DNA from: Minisyncoccota bacterium
GTDB lineage: Bacteria > Patescibacteriota > Minisyncoccia > Phycocordibacterales > UBA918
Assembly: GCA_041389005.1 (NCBI GenBank)
Contig: JAWKSR010000005.1
Coordinates: 1 to 59,376 of the forward strand
Length of the DNA: 59,376 nucleotides
Reading direction: 5' to 3'
Position numbers and translations under genes: made by a program. Under the pieces are notes generated by a model. The model saw nothing but the letters and a program-made list of their open reading frames with translations, had not been told where the DNA came from and did not search any database. This document shows positions 28,984 through 53,635 of this stretch, one piece after another. Numbering within the stretch: position 1 is the first letter of the stretch; each line of letters starts with the position of its first letter.

Positions 28984-29706
28984 GGCGCCTACGTATATGA
29001 GTTTAACCAACAAGCAATCGTAGCGGACTGAAGATCGCCTTGCGATTTTCTGCCGCATCTCGCGGTTTTGTTGGAAAACTTGCGAAATGCGTAGGTTTTT
29101 TGAAAAAACCTGGCGTTAGTGGCTGGTAACACAGCCAACGCGTCATGCATATCCTTTGAATCAAGTTGATGAAGGTCTGATTCCAGAAAGTCCTGTCTGT
29201 GTACTCGACATACACAGCGCCCGGGTAATACTTGTACACTCAAGCAGGTAAGTCTGTCGGGTAAAGATTATGTAGAAACACTACAGGGTCTTTTCGTCCC
29301 CGATGAACAAATGTTGTATATCAACAGATACAACAAAACCAACGTTCAAAAATTCTGTAGAGTTTTGAACATCACTCAAGTCAATGTACGGCGATTGTGC
29401 AGCATTTCCTTGCAGGAATGTAAGGGTGTATAGTGGATGCCTAGGTTTACAAGAGCGATGAAAGACGTGGAATGGCTGCGATAAGTTTCGGCGAGGTGCC
29501 AAGTAAACGCTTCGACCCGGAAATTTCTGAATACGAGGAAACCACTCCGTGTTCCGCACGGAACCTGTGTATGCAAGGGCGTACCTTGGGAAGTGAAACA
29601 TCTCAGTACCAAGAGGAAGAAAGCAATAGACGGAACTTTCTTTCTGGACGACACTGTCAAGACTTGTCTGGACGCCATTGTGTTCAGGAAGAAGGTTCTT
29701 GCGATT

Positions 29707-29744
<38 letters not shown>

Positions 29745-29965
29745 GTACGTGTTTACATGTACGGGGTTGTAGGACAGTAACAGCATTTAGTTGCGCGAAG
29801 TTACCAAGTATAGATATAGCAAAACGCTCTGCGACGACCCTAGTGGGTAATAGTCCCGTATGCGAAATGTCTGCTACCTGTGGTTACCGTTCCTGAAGTG
29901 GTTCGAGACATGAATAGCTCGAATGAATCTGCCGGCACTAACCGGTAAGGCTAAATATCTTGTAA

Positions 29966-29996
<31 letters not shown>

Positions 29997-30572
29997 AGGT
30001 GAAAAAGAACCCCGGGAGAGGGGAGCAAAATAGATCTGAAACCATACATCTACAGAGTCGGAGCCCTGCGGGGCGGCGGCGTGCCTATTGAAGAATGAGC
30101 GGCGAGTGTATCTTTGTCCTTTGTCTAAGGGTAACCCCCCGCAGGCACAGTGAAAGCGAGCGTTAATAGCGCGACTATAGGGCAGGGATACGACCCGAAG
30201 CGGGAAGAGCTTGCCATGAGCAGGGTGAAGCGGAGGTAATACTCCGTGGAGGCCCGAACCGGTTGGCCGTACAAACCATCGGATGACTTGTGGTAAGGAG
30301 TGAAAAGCTAATCGATTTCCGTAATAGCTGGTTCTCTCCGAAACAGCTTTAGGGTTGGCGTCGAGTGAAGCACTGAAGGTGGGGGGCACTGGAAGAGATA
30401 AATGTAGGAAACCTCGTTAACTTTCTATCAAACTCGAATACCAGTTGGTTATAGCTCTCAGCAGTTAGACTATGAGAGAAGCTCCATTGGTCAAAAGGGG
30501 AGCAGCCCAGATCGCCAGTTAAGGTCCCTAAATATATGCTCGGTGCATCTCGGAGGAGGTGAGGATTCTCAA

Positions 30573-30607
<35 letters not shown>

Positions 30608-30696
30608 TAAAATAGGCGTAACAGCTCACTGGTCGAGTCCTTGCGCCGAAGATGATCAGGGCTCAAGCATATTACCGAAACTGCGGATTCGTACAC

Positions 30697-30878
30697 TTCA
30701 TAAGGGATAGACATATTGGAATTTTTCCATGTCAGTGTTAGATTACTAAGCACAAAAGCAATGGTCACGGGACCGTAAAAGCTGTGCAGGATGGTGATAA
30801 TACTCGGATTTATCCGGATCTCTGACAACTGCCAAAGTAGTGGACTTTTTGTCCCACTTGCTTTGGCTCCCTTACTGA
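30697..30878 (+). other. ~180-nt insertion replacing the helix-45 loop of the 23S (IVS-like)
   Basis: The flanking helix strands TTCGTACAC (30688-96) and GTGTGCGAG (30879-87) correspond to the E. coli hairpin at about 1164-1185. The interior has no E. coli counterpart. Confidence 0.6.
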
Positions 30879-31410
30879 GTGTGCGAGTGGTAGGAGAGCG
30901 TTCGTAGTGCGATGAATGGAAGGGTAACCCGCCCTGGGCCGCTGCAAGTGAGAATGCCGGCACAAGTAACCTGGAACGGGTGAGACCCCCGTCCGCCGAA
31001 ATACCAAGGTTTCCTTCGCGATGGTGATCAGCGAAGGGTTAGTCGGTCCTAAAGGAGGAATCCCGAACGGGGGACCCGATGGAGAGCAGGTTAATATTCC
31101 TGCACACTGCTGCGTTTCGATGGAGGGACGGAGTGTTGTACCTACGGCATCTTATTGGATTGGTGCTGGAACTATGAGCGTCTTGCTTAGGCAAATCCGG
31201 TGGAAATAGCGCGAAGTAGAGTCTGAATGTGAGGGAGCTACGGCTGAGCAAATGTGGGAGCACACTTCCGAGAAAAACTTCTAAGGTTAAGCGTAGCGGT
31301 TCCGTACCTGAAACCGACACAGGTGGTAGGGTCAGAAGACCAAGGCGAACGAGTGAGAGGTCCTTAGGAACTCGGCAAAAAAGCGGCCGTAACTTCGGGA
31401 TAAGGCCTGC

Positions 31411-31748
31411 CCAATACACCACTTTGTCCTCAACTAACCCAGAAGAGGTACAAGTGGAAGCAGCAGCACAAGCTTTTAGAACTGTAAAAACAACAAGCAC
31501 TCTTTCCATTTCTGGAAGTGTTGGTGGCAGCTCAGTCACCAAATTTGTGTTTGAAAGCGGTGAAGAAGCAACCATTGAAATTAGCGATTTACGAGACGCA
31601 ATCAAAAGGGACGATGTTAAATCGCCGTATTCGGTCTTACGTTGTCTGTAGACAATTCGTTCAGGACGAAAGGTCTGTAGAAGCTCTGGGCATCTTAAAT
31701 TTTAGCCACAATCGTTCTTTGCGGATTGAGGCTAAAGTGGTATATTGG
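31411..31748 (+). other. ~340-nt stem-closed insertion at helix 63 of the 23S
   Basis: CCAATACACCACTTT (31411-25) pairs with AAAGTGGTATATTGG (31734-48). It lies between GGGATAAGGC and GACTGTTTAAC, where E. coli has a hairpin of about 45 nt. Confidence 0.6.
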
Positions 31749-31940
31749 AGCCGCAGCGAAAGATTTCCTGGCGACTGTTTAACAAAAACACAGCTCCCTG
31801 CGAACTCGTAAGAGGATGTATAGGGGGTGACGCCTGACCAATGCCGGAAGGTTAAGCACGGATGGTGTAATGACTTTTAGTTGTTATGCTGGGCTGTGTA
31901 AGCCCCGGTCAATGTCAGCGATAACTATAATCGTTCTGAG

Positions 31941-32183
31941 TACAGCACATGTGCATGCACGTGGGTTGTACGGACTGGAACGATTATATGAGTCTAAAGA
32001 CTCATTGTTAAATAGCCCGAGCCATAGTTACCTTCTCAGCTAGAAATAAGTTAGAGATAGTCCACCTAGCCAACAAGGAGACCAAATGCTAGGCACCTTC
32101 ACTTCAGATTCTGAAAAGGTGAAAGTGGAATATCCCTATTATTGCACGCATCTACTAAGGCAGATGCCGTGAAGAAAAAATAG
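31941..32183 (+). mobile_element. ORF-less group I-type intron in the 23S just 3' of helix 69 (boundaries +/- a few nt)
   Basis: It interrupts CTGAG | TAGGCGTATTTCCTTGTC, equivalent to E. coli CCUAAG|GUAGCGAAAUUCC at about 1929-1931. It contains an S-element-like AGAGATAGTCC (32053-62), a P7 pairing GGACT/AGTCC and a P8-like hairpin GAGTCT-AA-AGACTC. Confidence 0.6.
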
Positions 32184-32826
32184 GCGTATTTCCTTGTCCG
32201 GGCAGATTCCGACGTGCACGAATGGCGTAACGACTGGGAAACTGTCTCAAGGACCTGCTCGGTGAAAATACAATAGGGGTAAAGATGCCCCTTACCTGCA
32301 ATTAGACGAAAAGACCCCAGGAGCTTTACTGTAGCTTCGTATTGGGGCTGTTGAGTATGTGCGTAGTATAGTGGGGAGACTTTGAAGCGTACCTTTCGGG
32401 GGACGTGGAGTCGTCAGTGAAATACCCATCTCATTTTTGGCAGTCTCTAACCTGGTAGGAAAAACCTATTAGGGACATTGCGTGGCAGGCAGTTTTAGTG
32501 GGGCGCTACCCTCCCAAAGAGTAACGGAGGGGTCTCAAGGTCAACTAGGCGCGAATGGAAACCGTGCCGATAGTGCAATGGCAAAAGTTGGCTTGACTGC
32601 AAGGCGTAGATGCCAAGCAGACACGAAAGTGGAGCATAGTGAACCGATGGTACGCTTTAGATGCGGCCGGAGATTACCCGATAAAAGTTACCCTGGGGAT
32701 AACAGGCTAGTCGTGCCCAAGCGTCCAAAGCGACGGCACGGTTCGGCACCTCGATGTCGGCTCGACTTATCCTGGGGCTGGAGCAGGTCCCAAGGGTTTG
32801 GCTGTTCGCCAATTAAAAAGTCACGC

Positions 32827-32860
<34 letters not shown>

Positions 32861-32907
32861 CTCCTATCTACTGCAGGCGTCGATACTTGACGAGATTTGT
32901 CCCTAGT

Positions 32908-33683
32908 AAGAAATTGCTACTTCAGGGTGAGAACCCTGATGACAATACGGCTTATAACGGTGAAGTCTACGTCACTCCCGGTTTTAGAGGGTGGTACACC
33001 ATGGTCCATTGTGTACCAAACTCGCTTGAGGACCGGAAAAGTGATATGATAATACCGTGGGAAGTCGACTCAACACAGATTTAGCATACATTGCAGGTTT
33101 CCTTGATGGAGACGGAAGCATTATGTTGCAAGTAAAGAAGCGTAGCGACACCAGTCGCGGCGTTCGCTTTATGGCGGCTATATGCCTCTATCAAGATACT
33201 GCTCGCAAAACCACTAGGTGGGCTCGTGAAGTCTTAGGTATTGGTTATTATCGCACCGCAAGGACGGTATAACTGAGCTGAGGATCAATGGTTTTGCTTC
33301 GGTAAGAAAAGTGCTTTTAAAGCTCGCTCCGTATATCAAGTTTAAACAAGCTCAAGTAGTAGCCCTACATAAGGCTTGTGAAATACTTGAAAATACAACC
33401 ATGAGTAAGCTTAGCGAAGCACAATTACGTACGTTAGTTGATTTGGTTTTTACAATCAAAGAACACAACTACAAAAGTACTCAAACACTTACCAAAGACA
33501 TATTGCTACTGCGTTTGGGTTTGACCCCGTAACGACTTGCACTGAAAGATGTGCGGACTCATGGGTAGAGGAATCATTTCAAAGAAAATGACTGCTCCCA
33601 TGGGTAAGATGCCGTCATCCTCACTGGTGTCCGCCAGACGGATGAAGATATAGTCTGTGCTCCTGGAAACAGGGGAATACACG
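32908..33683 (+). mobile_element. group I intron carrying a LAGLIDADG ORF, inserted in the sarcin-ricin loop region of the 23S
   Basis: The exons read ...GTCCCTAGT | ACGAGAGGACCGGG. The 5' exon ends in T and the intron ends in G. The S element AAGATATAGTC is at 33645-33655. P7 is CGGACT/AGTCTG, and a P8-like hairpin is CATGGG...CCCATG. Confidence 0.7.
33057..33532 (+). pseudogene. LAGLIDADG homing endonuclease (single-motif, I-CreI-like), one frameshift as assembled
   Basis: LAYIAGFLDGDGSIMLQVKK... in ORF 33057-33272. It continues as SHRKDGITELRINGFASVRKVLLKLAPYIKFKQAQVV... in the frame of ORF 33311-33532. Confidence 0.75.
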
Positions 33684-34302: not shown

Positions 34303-34412
34303 GTTGGTGGGTCAGCGAGTGGGGTACACCCGTTCTCATTCCGAACACGGCAGTTAAGCCGCTTCGCGCCGATGGTACTTCTTTCTTAGAGGGAGAGTAG
34401 GTCACCGCCAAC
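34303..34412 (+). rRNA. rrf: 5S ribosomal RNA
   Basis: GTTGGTGG...CCCGTTCTCATTCCGAACACGGCAGTTAAGC...GCGCCGATGGTACT...GGGAGAGTAGGTCACCGCCAAC. Confidence 0.9.
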
Positions 34413-34949
34413 TTTAAGGGCTTTTTATTTTACTCTACACAATAAGGATTACTTTACTTTTTATAAAAAAATTGTATTATACAGAAAGAATGCATAGAGA
34501 GACTGGTGAACTCTCGGGCTAGTACATTGTGCGGCTGCTCCCGTCTCCCCGCAGGGGTGAGAGCCATGTTATAGAGAAGGTTTGAAGCCTCACTCGACAT
34601 GCCGTGGGTGTCAGTGCACGCACGGGTTGGAGGAACGATATCACAGGTTGTGGCAAAAATTTACTTTAGAGTTTAAGAACATATGACTTAAGCATGTGTT
34701 CTAAACAAAATTCACACGACAGTGATGTCCGGAATCTGACTGGATTTCTTCGGTCACGCTAGCGGGAGAGGATAGAGCTGCTTACTCTAGACCTCTCCAC
34801 TCACCACAAACTACTGCCCAACTGGGCAGTTTCGTAAGAAAAGCTAGCCTAGCTCGTCTTATAAGGCAGAATAGCCGGCTGATGATTGTATACAAGTCTT
34901 GCGCACAATCATTAGCTATGTTCCCACCGCAATCAGAGAAGGAAAACAA

Positions 34950-50422: not shown

Positions 50423-51880
<1,458 letters not shown>

Positions 51881-52120: not shown

Positions 52121-52693
52121 TTAAATATTTATAGAATCTCCACTGTTGTCACGAAATGGATCCCAATCAGCCTCCATGTTGTCGTTTGTTTCTCCAGTGA
52201 AGTCAGGATTACCGCTTGAGCCAATTCCATCCCAGCTACCGCCGGTATTATTGTCGGGACGTGGCGTTGGTATGGGGATATTTTCCCCAAAGGGTGAAGT
52301 ATTGTTTTGGGTATCGTTGTAGTTATTTTCAAGTTGAAAATCAAGATTGGCACTGTAGTCACTATTACTCCTTGATCCACCAAACCATCCTTGTCCGCCA
52401 CCAGGAGCGCTATAAAAGTAATCGGGTTCAACTGGATAGTACCCGTCAAGGTCAAAGCCTCTTATGATTACATTGATAATACCCCAAATACTGACTAGAA
52501 ATACAAATCCCGCGACGGCATAGAGAGCTAGCTTTTTGGCTTGTTCTCGGGCGTTTTGGTCGTCAGCATTGAAAATAAAGTACCGAGCAACATTCCATAA
52601 GAAAAACAGTAAAGCAAGAGCAAACAAAAAAGGAATTAAAACACTACCAATGAAGTAATTTGCCGCCGCAATATAGTAGATAACACCTGGCAT
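52121..52693 (-). CDS. hypothetical membrane protein (two TM helices, VirB2/TrbC-pilin-like topology) with a low-complexity G/N/D-rich tail
   Basis: FLFALALLFFLWNVARYF...AKKLALYAVAGFVFLVSIWGIINVI. The family assignment is tentative. Confidence 0.45.
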   Translation of the reverse strand: MPGVIYYIAAANYFIGSVLIPFLFALALLFFLWNVARYFIFNADDQNAREQAKKLALYAVAGFVFLVSIWGIINVIIRGFDLDGYYPVEPDYFYSAPGGGQGWFGGSRSNSDYSANLDFQLENNYNDTQNNTSPFGENIPIPTPRPDNNTGGSWDGIGSSGNPDFTGETNDNMEADWDPFRDNSGDSINI

Positions 52694-52807
52694 ACACCTA
52701 TCATAACGCGACCTCGACAGGGAAGCGAGATATTTCTAAACACTTGACATGTATAGTTTATATTGGATTAAGTAGGAATAATTCATTCAAACACGAGAAA
52801 AGCCACT

Positions 52808-52831
52808 TGTCCGCGCTCTAGGATTAACCTA
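52808..52831 (-). repeat. degenerate copy of the 3' end (T-arm and acceptor) of tRNA-Ile
   Basis: TGTCCGCGCTCTAGGATT is identical to 52983-53000. AACCTA follows after a 2-nt deletion. Confidence 0.8.
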
Positions 52832-52984
52832 TCTCGTTACACGAGCTGTATACCTTTTGACTATTTCTGTTCGTCACCTCCAGAAATATAGCAAAAGCTT
52901 CTAAAACAGTTCCCCAAACTGTTTTAGCCTTTCGAGTGAGAAGCGAAGCTTCGCAAGACTGCTTTAGATATTTTGCGTTTTCTG

Positions 52985-53058
52985 TCCGCGCTCTAGGATT
53001 TGAACCTAGGACCTTTCGAGTATCAGTCGAATGCTCTAGCCAACTGAGCTAAGCGCGG
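52985..53058 (-). tRNA. tRNA-Ile (anticodon GAU)
   Basis: Cloverleaf folded by hand. Acceptor CCGCGCT/AGCGCGG. D arm GCTC-AGTTGGCTA-GAGC. Anticodon arm TTCGA-CTGATAC-TCGAA. T arm CTAGG-TTCAAAT-CCTAG. Discriminator A. CCA is not encoded. Confidence 0.85.
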
Positions 53059-53104
53059 ACACAAAAAACAAAATATCTAAAACAGTGTACAGCTCCTGTA
53101 AGGA

Positions 53105-53206
53105 GTCAGTCGAATGCCCTCAACCAACCCTATCACTTCGTAAACATCAGCGATTTGCTACGCGACCGGAAAAATTGCTATCCGCAATTTTTAGCTCGCG
53201 CGGACA
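53105..53206 (-). pseudogene. decayed 5' portion of a second tRNA-Ile copy with a ~60-nt insertion in the D-loop
   Basis: The minus strand reads TGTCCGCGCGAGCT-[insert with hairpin AAAAATTGC/GCAATTTTT]-TTGGTTGAGGGCATTCGACTGA. This matches the acceptor, D and anticodon 5' strands of the intact gene up to the middle of the anticodon. Confidence 0.6.
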
Positions 53207-53296
53207 GAAAAGGCTAACATGCTCTCTGTAGCAAATACGTGGCGGATACTATAGCAAAAAAATACAAAGATGTAAGGGTATTGCTATACTAGTTAC

Positions 53297-53635
53297 ATGA
53301 CAGAAATAGAGTATAACGATTTTGAAAAAGTGGAACTTCGCGTGGGGACTGTTACAAACGCTGAAACATTTCCGGAGGCTAAGAAACCAGCGTATAAATT
53401 AACCATTCATTTTGGCGAAGAAATTGGCACTAAGAAATCGAGTGCACAAATTACTGACCACTATACACCCGAAATGCTAGTGGGGAAGCAGGTGGTGGCG
53501 GTGGTAAATTTTCCACCCAAGCAAGTCGGACCGTTTATGTCGGAGTGTTTGGTGACTGGTTTTTATGATGATCAGAACAAAGTCGTGCTCATTGCTCCCG
53601 ACCAGCCAGTTCCTAATGGCGCTCGACTTTCGTAG
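53297..53635 (+). CDS. csaA: tRNA-binding (CsaA/EMAP-type OB fold) protein
   Basis: FEKVELRVGTVTNAETFPEAKKPAYKLTIHFGEEIGTKKSSAQIT...LVGKQVVAVVNFPPKQVG. Confidence 0.8.
   Translation: MTEIEYNDFEKVELRVGTVTNAETFPEAKKPAYKLTIHFGEEIGTKKSSAQITDHYTPEMLVGKQVVAVVNFPPKQVGPFMSECLVTGFYDDQNKVVLIAPDQPVPNGARLS

Follow-up and report, generated by a model that had tools for sequence, protein, structure and literature searches.

How an intact tRNA gene comes to lie between the pieces of a second, decayed one is the question raised by a tRNA-Ile locus of a Minisyncoccota bacterium, carried by a 59,376-nucleotide stretch (contig JAWKSR010000005.1) analysed here in its full length and referred to as the window. 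In the reading that we favour, and hold to be probable, the tRNA-Ile(GAU) gene was repeatedly hit by small elements specific to this bacterial order, and was rescued each time by a spare copy of the sequence displaced. The order of the events at the locus could be reconstructed only in part.

The sole tRNA called in the window by ARAGORN and Rfam is an intact tRNA-Ile(GAU) on the minus strand, running from 53058 to 52984 or 52985 (ARAGORN call tRNA-Ile(gat); 72.2 bits against RF00005, gathering score 29). As the initial annotation had proposed, it is nested in a second tRNA-Ile, the pieces of which are colinear with it, and the similarity is significant on both sides under formal alignment. 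By Smith-Waterman comparison of the intact tRNA with its flanks and with 2000 shuffles, the piece at 53106..53128 (minus strand; D loop, D-stem 3' strand and anticodon-stem 5' strand up to A35, ending inside the anticodon) scored 29, against a shuffle mean of 14.3 (sd 2.1, maximum 26). The 3' piece at 52808..52832 (minus strand; T arm, acceptor 3' strand and 2 nt of flank) scored 41 over 52831-52808. Neither value was reached in any of the 2000 shuffles. Two shorter minus-strand pieces complete the series. One is the acceptor 5' strand plus 5 nt at 53193..53205, with 8 identical and colinear nucleotides (53205-53198); the other, at 52928..52937, is the anticodon-stem 3' strand with the start of the variable loop, and is identical to the intact tRNA at 10 of 10 nt. 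The 18 nt said to be shared by the 3' remnant and the real gene are indeed a perfect repeat (family D2, 52808-52825 = 52983-53000). None of the outer pieces is called as a tRNA by ARAGORN, which reports one gene only, and Rfam gave no second tRNA match in 52500-53500 at E up to 10.

A promoter-like site (-35, 17-nt spacer and extended -10; 53248..53276, minus strand) lies about 43 nt upstream of the outer 5' piece. The motif recurs in relatives, inspected by eye, with comparable spacing: nested alleles have it ahead of the outer piece, clean alleles ahead of the intact tRNA. What remains outside the intact gene is an older tRNA-Ile, standing at the original and conserved promoter and now reduced to decaying remnants. 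The loop of the outer T arm carries a 2-nt deletion, the outer D region differs from that of the intact gene by 2 substitutions and a 1-nt insertion, and the 5' piece diverges from the 5' end of that gene after the first 8 nt. The locus is not an assembly artefact, since both the stretch from the 5' remnant into the tRNA and that from the element into the 3' remnant are covered by contigs of four DNA runs from four studies. No joint of an empty site was found in the contigs of the four runs; in X4 the stretch 52937-52972 is replaced relative to the window.

The outer gene carries three insertions, in the D loop, the anticodon loop and the variable loop. The first, for which a length of about 60 nt had been given, spans some 64 nt and is a module with two hairpins, called M1 (53129..53192, minus strand). 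M1 does not match R1, the covariance model of the type-1 elements described below. In relatives, copies related to M1 reside at tRNA-Ile(UAU) loci (L160, L161) and downstream of an intact tRNA-Ile (L162, L163). M1 is a third, separate module, distinct from both type-1 copies of the locus.

An inverted type-1 copy, the first insertion of this type, lies in the outer anticodon loop (53105-52938). Its junction and terminal hairpin P3 (53085..53105, plus strand) align with the full inverted element of a related genome, G007, and match exactly, over 21 nt, a tRNA-Tyr-linked copy on contig C6. On the plus strand the 3' flank of this segment corresponds, in antisense, to the 5' half of the outer tRNA, and a partial R1 match covers 53056-53105 (plus strand, 27.1 bits, E 0.0019). 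The inverted repeat noticed around the intact tRNA is real, but the 13 nt first assigned to it are too few, since the arms measure 35 nt and are 89% complementary (repeat I1); with the G007 alignment, the left and right arms are placed at 53059..53084 and 52958..52983, on the minus strand. The left arm occupies the stem position of the P1/P2 arm of the inverted element. A short hairpin at 52938..52957 (minus strand), aligned with the corresponding part of G007, stands where the inverted element has its small 5' hairpin; it includes the 12-nt palindrome already reported, located however at 52943-54 and not, 2 nt away, at 52941-52952. The intact tRNA sits in the P2-loop position of the inverted copy.

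The second insertion is a direct type-1 copy in the outer variable loop (52927-52833). It opens with a small hairpin (52901..52927, minus strand; I5) of a type that stands before many type-1 copies, and holds the scaffold, made of P1, P2, junction and P3, at 52833..52910 (minus strand; R1 89.9 bits, E 1.4e-18). This copy has no antisense arm (scores of 4), and its nearest relatives, 78% alike, occupy this locus in G036 and G063. Hairpin modules do adjoin both remnants where the initial annotation had placed them. Their complementary inner edges, described there as able to pair, are the same terminal type-1 module in two orientations. The two are alike as reverse complements at 17 of 20 positions by hand count, rather than 16 of 18, and of the three differences, two compensate each other inside each hairpin. 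Similarly, the cassette envisaged in the anticodon loop exists as a tRNA unit bracketed by inverted repeats at the break, but the single unit of ~250 bp has to be replaced by two insertions.

Alleles of the locus were compared among relatives. The nested layout is common to several species of the genus (G002, G006, G007, G021, G030, G031, G036 and G063), and clean alleles are found in others. A 5' piece of like form was identified in G002, G006, G007, G021, G022, G030, G031, G036, G061 and G063; the alleles of G012 and G003 are devoid of the 5' remnant. In G007 a complete inverted element (R1 33 bits) resides at the same anticodon-loop break, and the flanks of the inner tRNA of the window align to it. 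In both G006 and G007 the anticodon-stem 3' piece continues into a complete 3' half. The flanks of a filled tRNA-Ile(UAU) site in G032 and of an empty one in G000 are not syntenic.

In the ~78-nt, three-helix core common to type-1 elements, P1 encloses P2; a conserved junction follows, and the third helix is P3, a hairpin of 5 bp whose loop resembles TGTAA. The modules recur, as the initial annotation had thought worth checking. The 720-kb Patescibacteria genome to which the window belongs hosts 12 full copies and a partial one, and matches are found in 51 of the 61 genomes of the order, at 0-45 copies per genome; none was found in 100 genomes from the rest of the phylum. Over 50 copies, 93.9% of cells pair and 18 of 19 pairs change on both sides, as counted in an alignment fitted to the model itself; the observed level is reached in 0 of 500 shuffles, and slid controls stay at 47-57%. 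A second P1 register with an extended P2 is paired at 90.1%. With so few wobble pairs, and with both P1 registers scoring about equally, G-U pairs do not discriminate as to strand or RNA. At the tip of P2 is a conserved GAG...CGAA loop, and this, on our own reading of the motif, could form tandem G-A pairs. Copies in the genome are 58-86% alike to their nearest relative, and there was therefore no recent burst; to judge from this divergence, type-1 copies appear to be old. Pairing is kept among copies at the same locus in different species, which fits a selected function as well as a mobile lineage. Rfam, at permissive thresholds, has no family for the type-1 scaffold, M1 or the module denoted 'type 2'. 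A search of the full-text literature retrieved no description of such elements, which is no proof that none exists. Type-1 is a previously undescribed family of small structured non-coding elements, specific to this order. Viral contigs, scanned for the motif, yielded three pattern matches, none of which is an R1 match.

At tRNA genes the usual order is intact tRNA gene, hairpin spacer, inverted copy, scaffold and direct copy. A tRNA on the same strand lies 24-134 nt upstream of 28 of the 50 type-1 copies, and a terminator-like hairpin is usually interposed. The direct copy corresponds to the tRNA from the T loop to the 3' end; it is perfect over 21-26 nt in some elements (L028, L048, L050, L054 and L055), and decayed in others. 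The mean score of type-1 3' flanks is 15.6 against the cognate tRNA and 7.0 (sd 2.5) against non-cognate ones, and the cognate tRNA is the best of all matches to the 3' flank in 20 of the 28 copies. The inverted copy is exact, extends from the 3' flank of the tRNA back to the T loop, and is often split by a small hairpin. This upstream segment is the antisense of the tRNA 3' strand, rather than a duplicate of the 5' strand of that tRNA, an origin that holds at all 8 diagnostic G-U or mismatch positions in well-parsed rows; often it takes in also the discriminator and the 3' flank. Predicted folds are three-way junctions closed by pairing of the antisense segment with the direct copy (z -7.4 and -4.9), and many copies have a 2-nt bulge in the T-loop part of the stem. 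The repeats are 75-175 nt apart, and no sense ORF of at least 40 aa occurs between them. By eye, the inverted sequences are derived from the target and differ at each locus, and the left ends of five young copies have no common terminus. Other targets are used as well. At L034, tandem units are found at the 3' end of an ORF, and further copies reside at other ORF ends and at intergenic sites. At the ORF targets L053 and L034 the promoter-side and the displaced copies encode similar C-termini, and differ in DNA sequence.

Candidate enzymes were looked for in the same genomes. IS110 (PF01548, DEDD transposase) was found in 5 of 61 genomes, against 51 of 61 for type-1, and the TnpB zinc ribbon (PF07282) in 3 of 61; neither tracks type-1. 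No reverse transcriptase (RVT_1, PF00078) was detected in five genomes, four of which contain 20-45 copies. Tyrosine recombinases (PF00589) gave one match per genome in five of five, two of them lacking type-1. Y1/HUH proteins (PF01797), which in many of these genomes are ~220-250 aa long, were found in 35 of 61 genomes; 4 of the 10 genomes devoid of type-1 have them, and 20 of the 51 with type-1 do not; between Y1 presence and type-1 copy number there is a loose trend only. Scanning three Y1 loci with R1 revealed no copy adjoining a Y1 gene; three IS110 loci gave one weak match (L058).

In the explanation that we prefer, elements would enter the single-stranded loops of hairpins formed by tRNA genes, GGTTCGA sequences resembling the T loop being the commonest sites. 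The direct-inverted-direct triplication of the target, an unusual footprint around a conserved three-way junction, may be produced by fold-back (snap-back) DNA synthesis repairing the hit gene, or by recombination of a folded single-stranded form, the stem of which would mimic the target. L028, L054 and L055 are young copies whose direct repeats are perfect, and their far antisense segment is absent or imperfect, which a pure snap-back origin would not predict. At the Ile locus the inner tRNA would be made from a long precursor starting at the old promoter. Type-1, M1 and 'type 2' could also represent a new class of enzyme-poor mobile DNA, with pairing-directed, self-complementing insertion, a possibility that we put forward tentatively and with more doubt than conviction. 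Targeting would then depend on pairing of a guide-like antisense segment and of the P3 5' strand with T-loop-like sequences, insertion would take place into hairpin loops of essential genes, and harmlessness would be ensured by copying the displaced gene end, or by carrying a whole tRNA, via a fold-back or folded single-strand intermediate. Such a system could be unlike any described transposon, integrase element or intron. If targets are really chosen by pairing, the elements would exemplify a new route of site-specific insertion needing very little protein.

That type-1 is chiefly a functional non-coding RNA, derived for instance from tRNA trailers, and that the Ile locus hosts by-products of local duplication, seems to us unlikely. 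The closing helix would copy the acceptor/T-stem minihelix of the neighbouring tRNA, and tRNA-processing enzymes could therefore excise the scaffold or act on it; the spread to tRNA genes would be ancient. Such a role is consistent with compensatory pairing in all three helices across copies only 58-86% alike, with the conserved P2 cap, with the reproduction of the tRNA 3' strand, discriminator included, in the closing helix, and with the closeness of the Ile-locus copy to those at the same locus in two other species, as with the lack of a transposase tracking type-1. An RNA of this kind hardly accounts, though, for a copy number ranging from 0 to 45 inside one genus, or for the units in tandem at the L034 ORF and the copies at other ORF ends and intergenic sites. 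Both orientations have moreover been found inside loops of dead tRNA copies, and the terminator-like hairpin usually separates the tRNA from the element.

The alternative suggestion made at the outset, that the remnants are nested att-site duplications, is right in its general idea, since displaced parts of the tRNA do form direct repeats. As classical integration it does not hold, because neither integrase nor cargo is present between the repeats, and five genomes have a single tyrosine recombinase each, with or without type-1. Integrase islands or prophages in tRNA genes, later deleted to ~100 nt, are thus already disfavoured, and in our judgement very improbable. Tyrosine integrases targeting tRNA genes are said, after Williams in 2002, to cross over in the anticodon loop or the T loop, reportedly the sublocations which these enzymes use. 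The tRNA 3'-end direct repeats run from either loop, a copy of the displaced part preserves the gene intact at its promoter end, and the displaced part itself remains as a direct repeat, all as in elements of that class. In contrast, type-1 elements measure only ~100-170 nt, the same 78-nt structured core is found at each site, with a tRNA 3' repeat at the far end and no integrase or cargo between the repeats, and many different targets, ORF ends among them, are hit in one genome. The inverted target copy is not a product of integrase recombination, and the single tyrosine recombinase is present whatever the element load, also in the two genomes with no copy.

It is scarcely credible that the outer tRNA-Ile still works, the insertions being introns or processed spacers, as in multi-intron or split tRNAs, and the inner tRNA a nested second gene. 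In G007 the exon-like outer pieces, among them a 3' half of 39 nt, are almost the same as the inner gene in sequence, and the complementary edges of the insertions recall the leader pairing used by split archaeal tRNAs. The outer pieces of the window, however, are damaged in the T loop, in the D region and at the 5' end; once joined, they do not, by eye, restore a 7-nt anticodon loop; and an intact copy is present in every case. No group I intron core, and no Rfam family other than tRNA, was matched at the locus (E up to 10), nor was a group I core at seven related loci (E up to 1).

Further candidates were discarded: a hammerhead-like three-way junction (strands in the wrong order, no Rfam match), a primer-binding site for a tRNA primer (the antisense copy has the genomic flank, not CCA), a diversity-generating retroelement (no RT, PF00078, in five genomes, and no adenine-specific differences), and hairpin opening of the P-nucleotide type (spacer hairpins have ordinary loops). 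By eye, type-1 lacks the conserved terminal inverted repeats and the short fixed target duplication of a MITE. Young copies are flanked by perfect 21-26-nt direct repeats, whereas derivatives of IS200/IS605 such as PATE or REPIN insert free of duplications.

Partial likenesses to known systems are instructive for the explanation preferred here. CTX-phi, other Xer-exploiting elements and integron attC sites recombine as folded single strands. The inverted and direct copies of type-1 can similarly fold into a stem mimicking the double-stranded target, with side branches and, in many copies, the 2-nt T-loop bulge, and the direct-inverted-direct order would be expected from a single strand exchange with a folded circle; yet no dif-like or attC-like sequence is found, and the target varies by copy. 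The likeness may serve as a working analogy only. REPINs, with RAYT, are hairpin-shaped non-autonomous elements of the IS200/IS605 (Y1/HUH) world. Like them, type-1 elements are small, hairpin-rich and non-coding, reside in tens of intergenic copies, and coexist in many genomes with Y1 proteins; at variance with them, Y1 is missing in 20 of the 51 type-1 genomes, and no copy adjoins a Y1 gene at the three Y1 loci scanned. REPIN and IS200/IS605-type families are not known to leave long target repeats.

IS110/IS1111 elements carry a bridge RNA or seekRNA, and resemble type-1 in having a structured non-coding part with segments matching both target strands. The DEDD transposase is however confined to 5 of the 61 genomes, type-1 carries no gene, and its matching segments, of 10-25 nt, form a closed helix. 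Long target duplications are made by casposons and by CRISPR Cas1 integration, as by type-1, and casposons have the 3' ends of tRNA genes as insertion sites. Type-1 differs in lacking conserved terminal inverted repeats, in carrying neither Cas1 nor a polymerase as cargo, and in a duplication that begins at the T loop and runs slightly beyond the tRNA end, with the inverted copy in addition. The atp6 gene of Allomyces is reportedly a case of a mobile ORF with a replacement 3' end for the host gene. The similar C-termini encoded by the promoter-side and displaced copies at L053 and L034 are reminiscent of this; the fungal elements encode homing endonucleases, whereas type-1 has no ORF. Mobile ORFs and introns that supply the host gene with a new 3' end are reported from fungal mitochondria; PMC7315562 deals with this subject.

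The tRNA genes of a large group of uncultured, ultra-small bacteria with reduced genomes thus carry an abundant repeat family which tRNA finders and Rfam do not report, and which explains why odd, incomplete tRNA copies turn up in these assemblies. An insertion into an essential single-copy gene can be tolerated where there is a duplicate of the displaced part, or a complete replacement tRNA. The covariance model lets annotators mask the elements, and recognise rescued and dead tRNA copies. The gene next to the locus, noted as VirB2-like, is an ORF at 52121-52693 (minus strand) that matches Pfam T4SS_pilin (E 1.3e-8).

The only tRNA detected in the window by ARAGORN and Rfam is a tRNA-Ile(GAU) at 52984-53058, on the minus strand. 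The initial annotation had placed this gene between 5' and 3' remnants of a second tRNA-Ile, and both are recovered by local alignment of the tRNA to its flanks. The main upstream piece (53128-53106) scores 29 and the main downstream piece (52831-52808) scores 41; neither score is equalled in 2000 shuffles (mean 14.3, sd 2.1, max 26 for the upstream piece). Additional remnants are found at 53205-53198 and 52937-52928, and all flanking pieces are colinear with tRNA-Ile. Read 5' to 3' on the minus strand, the locus includes a promoter-like site (53276-53248), the 5' piece of the outer tRNA-Ile (53205-53193), a 64-nt two-hairpin module called M1, located inside the D loop (53192-53129), a second outer piece ending at A35 (53128-53106), an inverted P3 hairpin plus junction (53105-53085), the first stem arm (53084-53059), the intact tRNA-Ile (53058-52984), the second stem arm (52983-52958), a short hairpin (52957-52938), a third outer piece (52937-52928), a direct copy of the type-1 element (52927-52833), and the outer 3' piece (52832-52808). 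The arms of the inverted repeat bracketing the intact gene are 35 nt long and 89% complementary. The source genome (G000) is a 720 kb assembly of 12 contigs, 77% complete, and the window is its contig C5. The arrangement is not an assembly artefact, because contigs from four runs, produced in four studies, cover each of its halves. In a contig from one run (X4), a different sequence of 95 letters takes the place of 34 nt of the window, within 52937-52972 (right stem arm and short hairpin), a structural variant that another population carries at this locus. The locus lies between an ORF matching T4SS_pilin and one for a tRNA-binding-domain protein.

The stretch adjoining the 3' remnant is found again elsewhere in the same genome. 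In the covariance model (R1), built from five copies and 78 positions long, P2 lies within the P1 helix, followed by a junction and the 5-bp P3 hairpin. R1 finds 12 full copies in G000, with E from 1e-18 to 1e-5, plus a partial one at 53056-53105 on the opposite strand, which corresponds to the module adjoining the 5' remnant. In genome-wide profile searches, run through a first-look filter, R1 matches were identified in 51 of the 61 genomes of the order (0-45 copies per genome), including 35 of the 36 further species in the genus and 15 of 24 among the other families. None of 100 genomes from the rest of the phylum gave a match at E 1e-7 with stricter filters. No Rfam family corresponds to the scaffold, even at permissive thresholds, and a full-text search, covering part of the literature, found no description of type-1 elements. 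In 50 copies, 93.9% of the cells are paired and 18 of the 19 pairs change on both sides; the alignment was fitted to R1, a bias toward pairing, yet the controls fall far below: 0 of 500 shuffles attain the observed value and slid partners give 47-57%. An alternative P1 register yields similar pairing figures.

Type-1 elements sit within or beside tRNA loops. A tRNA gene on the same strand lies 24-134 nt upstream of 28 of the 50 copies; the remaining 22 lack such a tRNA, and those examined are found within tRNA remnants, in intergenic DNA or at the 3' ends of ORFs. Directly after P3 there is a direct copy of the tRNA that starts in the T loop and ends 2-4 nt beyond the discriminator. Its mean score is 15.6 against the cognate tRNA and 7.0 (sd 2.5) against non-cognate tRNAs, and the cognate tRNA is the best of all matches in 20 of the 28 copies. 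Whatever part of a hit gene is displaced, an intact copy of it is always present, and the displaced part decays. The direct copy is perfect over 21-26 nt at loci L028, L048, L050, L054 and L055, and decayed in others. The T loop of this tRNA is matched in antisense by the first ~10 nt of R1 (own 8.9 vs 6.4). Farther upstream, often past a small hairpin, lies sequence antisense to the 3' strands of the T stem and acceptor (own 9.6 vs 5.5). An inverted target copy is part of the usual layout. At G-U or mismatch sites of the stems, the antisense segment agrees with the exact complement of the tRNA 3' strand, and not with the 5' strand of the tRNA itself, at 8 of 8 sites in well-parsed rows; over all rows, four of them mis-parsed, 17 diagnostic positions fit the antisense, 1 the five-prime strand and 2 neither. 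The segment often takes in the discriminator and the 3' flank as well, and is therefore an inverted duplication of the target. In several copies the P3 3' strand already belongs to the direct copy, and P3 changes with the target; at L045, for example, it follows an unusual T loop. Predicted folds are three-way junctions, closed by the antisense T-loop segment paired with the direct copy. At L034, 95-nt tandem units are found at an ORF end. In ORF targets (L053), the copy on the promoter side and the displaced one code for similar C-termini.

Outer pieces of like shape and M1 are found in related genomes (G002, G006, G007, G021, G022, G030, G031, G036, G061, G063). The tRNA-Ile gene is clean in G012, and carries the usual T-loop element without a 5' remnant in G003. 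In nested alleles the promoter motif stands before the outer piece, in clean alleles before the intact gene, so the outer copy is the original gene. In G007 a complete inverted type-1-like element (R1 33 bits, strand opposite to the tRNA) resides at the same anticodon-loop break. The window sequences on either side of the inner tRNA can each be aligned with one half of this element. The intact tRNA-Ile of G000, like that of G006 and G021, therefore takes the place of the P2 loop in an inverted element. In G007, G030 and G031 this tRNA, with similar sequence in its proximal flanks, is placed in the D arm instead. The direct type-1 copy in the variable loop is common to G000, G036 and G063, and the copies of the latter two are its nearest relatives (78%). 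M1-like modules also cut outer copies at the tRNA-Ile(UAU) loci L160 (G010) and L161 (G025), and lie 3' of the intact tRNA-Ile(GAU) in G022 (L162) and G061 (L163), flanked by acceptor-like and D-loop-like pieces. At L161 a perfect 20-nt 3' remnant starts just 16 nt past the intact tRNA, with no scaffold in between.

Elements would enter at single-stranded hairpin loops, mainly at T-loop-like sequences; a GGTTCGA-like motif was also seen by eye in several ORF and intergenic targets. Two origins are proposed for the triplicated target: fold-back synthesis as the hit gene is repaired, or recombination in which a folded single strand mimics the target, as for CTX-phi or attC. A pure snap-back origin is disfavoured, because the far antisense arm is imperfect in young copies. 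Type-1 elements share some traits with, and differ in others from, integrases, CTX-phi, attC, REPINs, bridge RNAs, casposons and mitochondrial mobile ORFs. Among candidate enzymes, Y1/HUH proteins are found in 35 of 61 genomes, IS110 in 5 of 61 and the TnpB zinc ribbon in 3 of 61. A tyrosine recombinase occurs once per genome in 5 of 5 genomes, two of them without type-1 copies, and RVT_1 was found in none of 5 genomes searched. Y1/HUH is present in 9 of 10 genomes with at least 20 copies and in 7 of 19 with at most 3, with clear exceptions both ways and counts which are not independent, the genomes being kin. No type-1 copy adjoins a Y1 gene at the three Y1 loci scanned. Y1/HUH-domain proteins of ~210-300 aa are common in the order (L079 1333-1986) beside a few classical 151-aa IS200-type transposases, and are read as RAYT-like; their match to the Pfam model is confined to its C-terminal two thirds.

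A second, longer scaffold ('type 2') is located upstream of type-1 matches at L037, L043, L046, L051 and L052, and downstream of the outer tRNA-Ile at L066 and L067. Its layout is similar: the 5' end carries an antisense T-loop segment and the 3' end a direct copy of the tRNA 3' sequence, and one of its hairpins has a GAG...CGAA loop identical to that of type-1 P2. Serial insertion after one tRNA, type 2 then type 1, is observed. The motif CGAACGAAGTGAG, which may be a further small module, recurs by eye directly past tRNA 3' ends or displaced copies (G000 tRNA-Ala on contig C3; L038, L048, L054), and a similar run is seen inside M1 of the window. On contig C7 of G000 (~33050-33360, L015), a tRNA-like sequence not called by ARAGORN precedes a type-1 copy; by eye, its own T-stem 3' strand is unpaired, and the direct copy past the element would pair. 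A second tRNA-Ser, with an unusual ACT anticodon (ARAGORN), resides at L029 1809-1897 and L032 1641-1728, ~60-230 nt past the type-1 element that trails the tRNA-Ser(GCT) gene; the one at L032 comes with its own type-1 element. tRNA-Ile genes with a TAT anticodon, uncommon in bacteria, are found on contig C2 of G000 (82578-82651) and at L028, L160 and L161. The rRNA genes of the window are unlinked (29410-32894, 34303-34413, 50423-51880). The 5S gene lies 1.4 kb after the 23S gene, the 16S gene ~16 kb further along, and the tRNA-Ile 1.1 kb after the latter, on the opposite strand. The 23S match is 3485 nt long where the model has 2925 nt, and the gene therefore carries ~560 nt of insertions.
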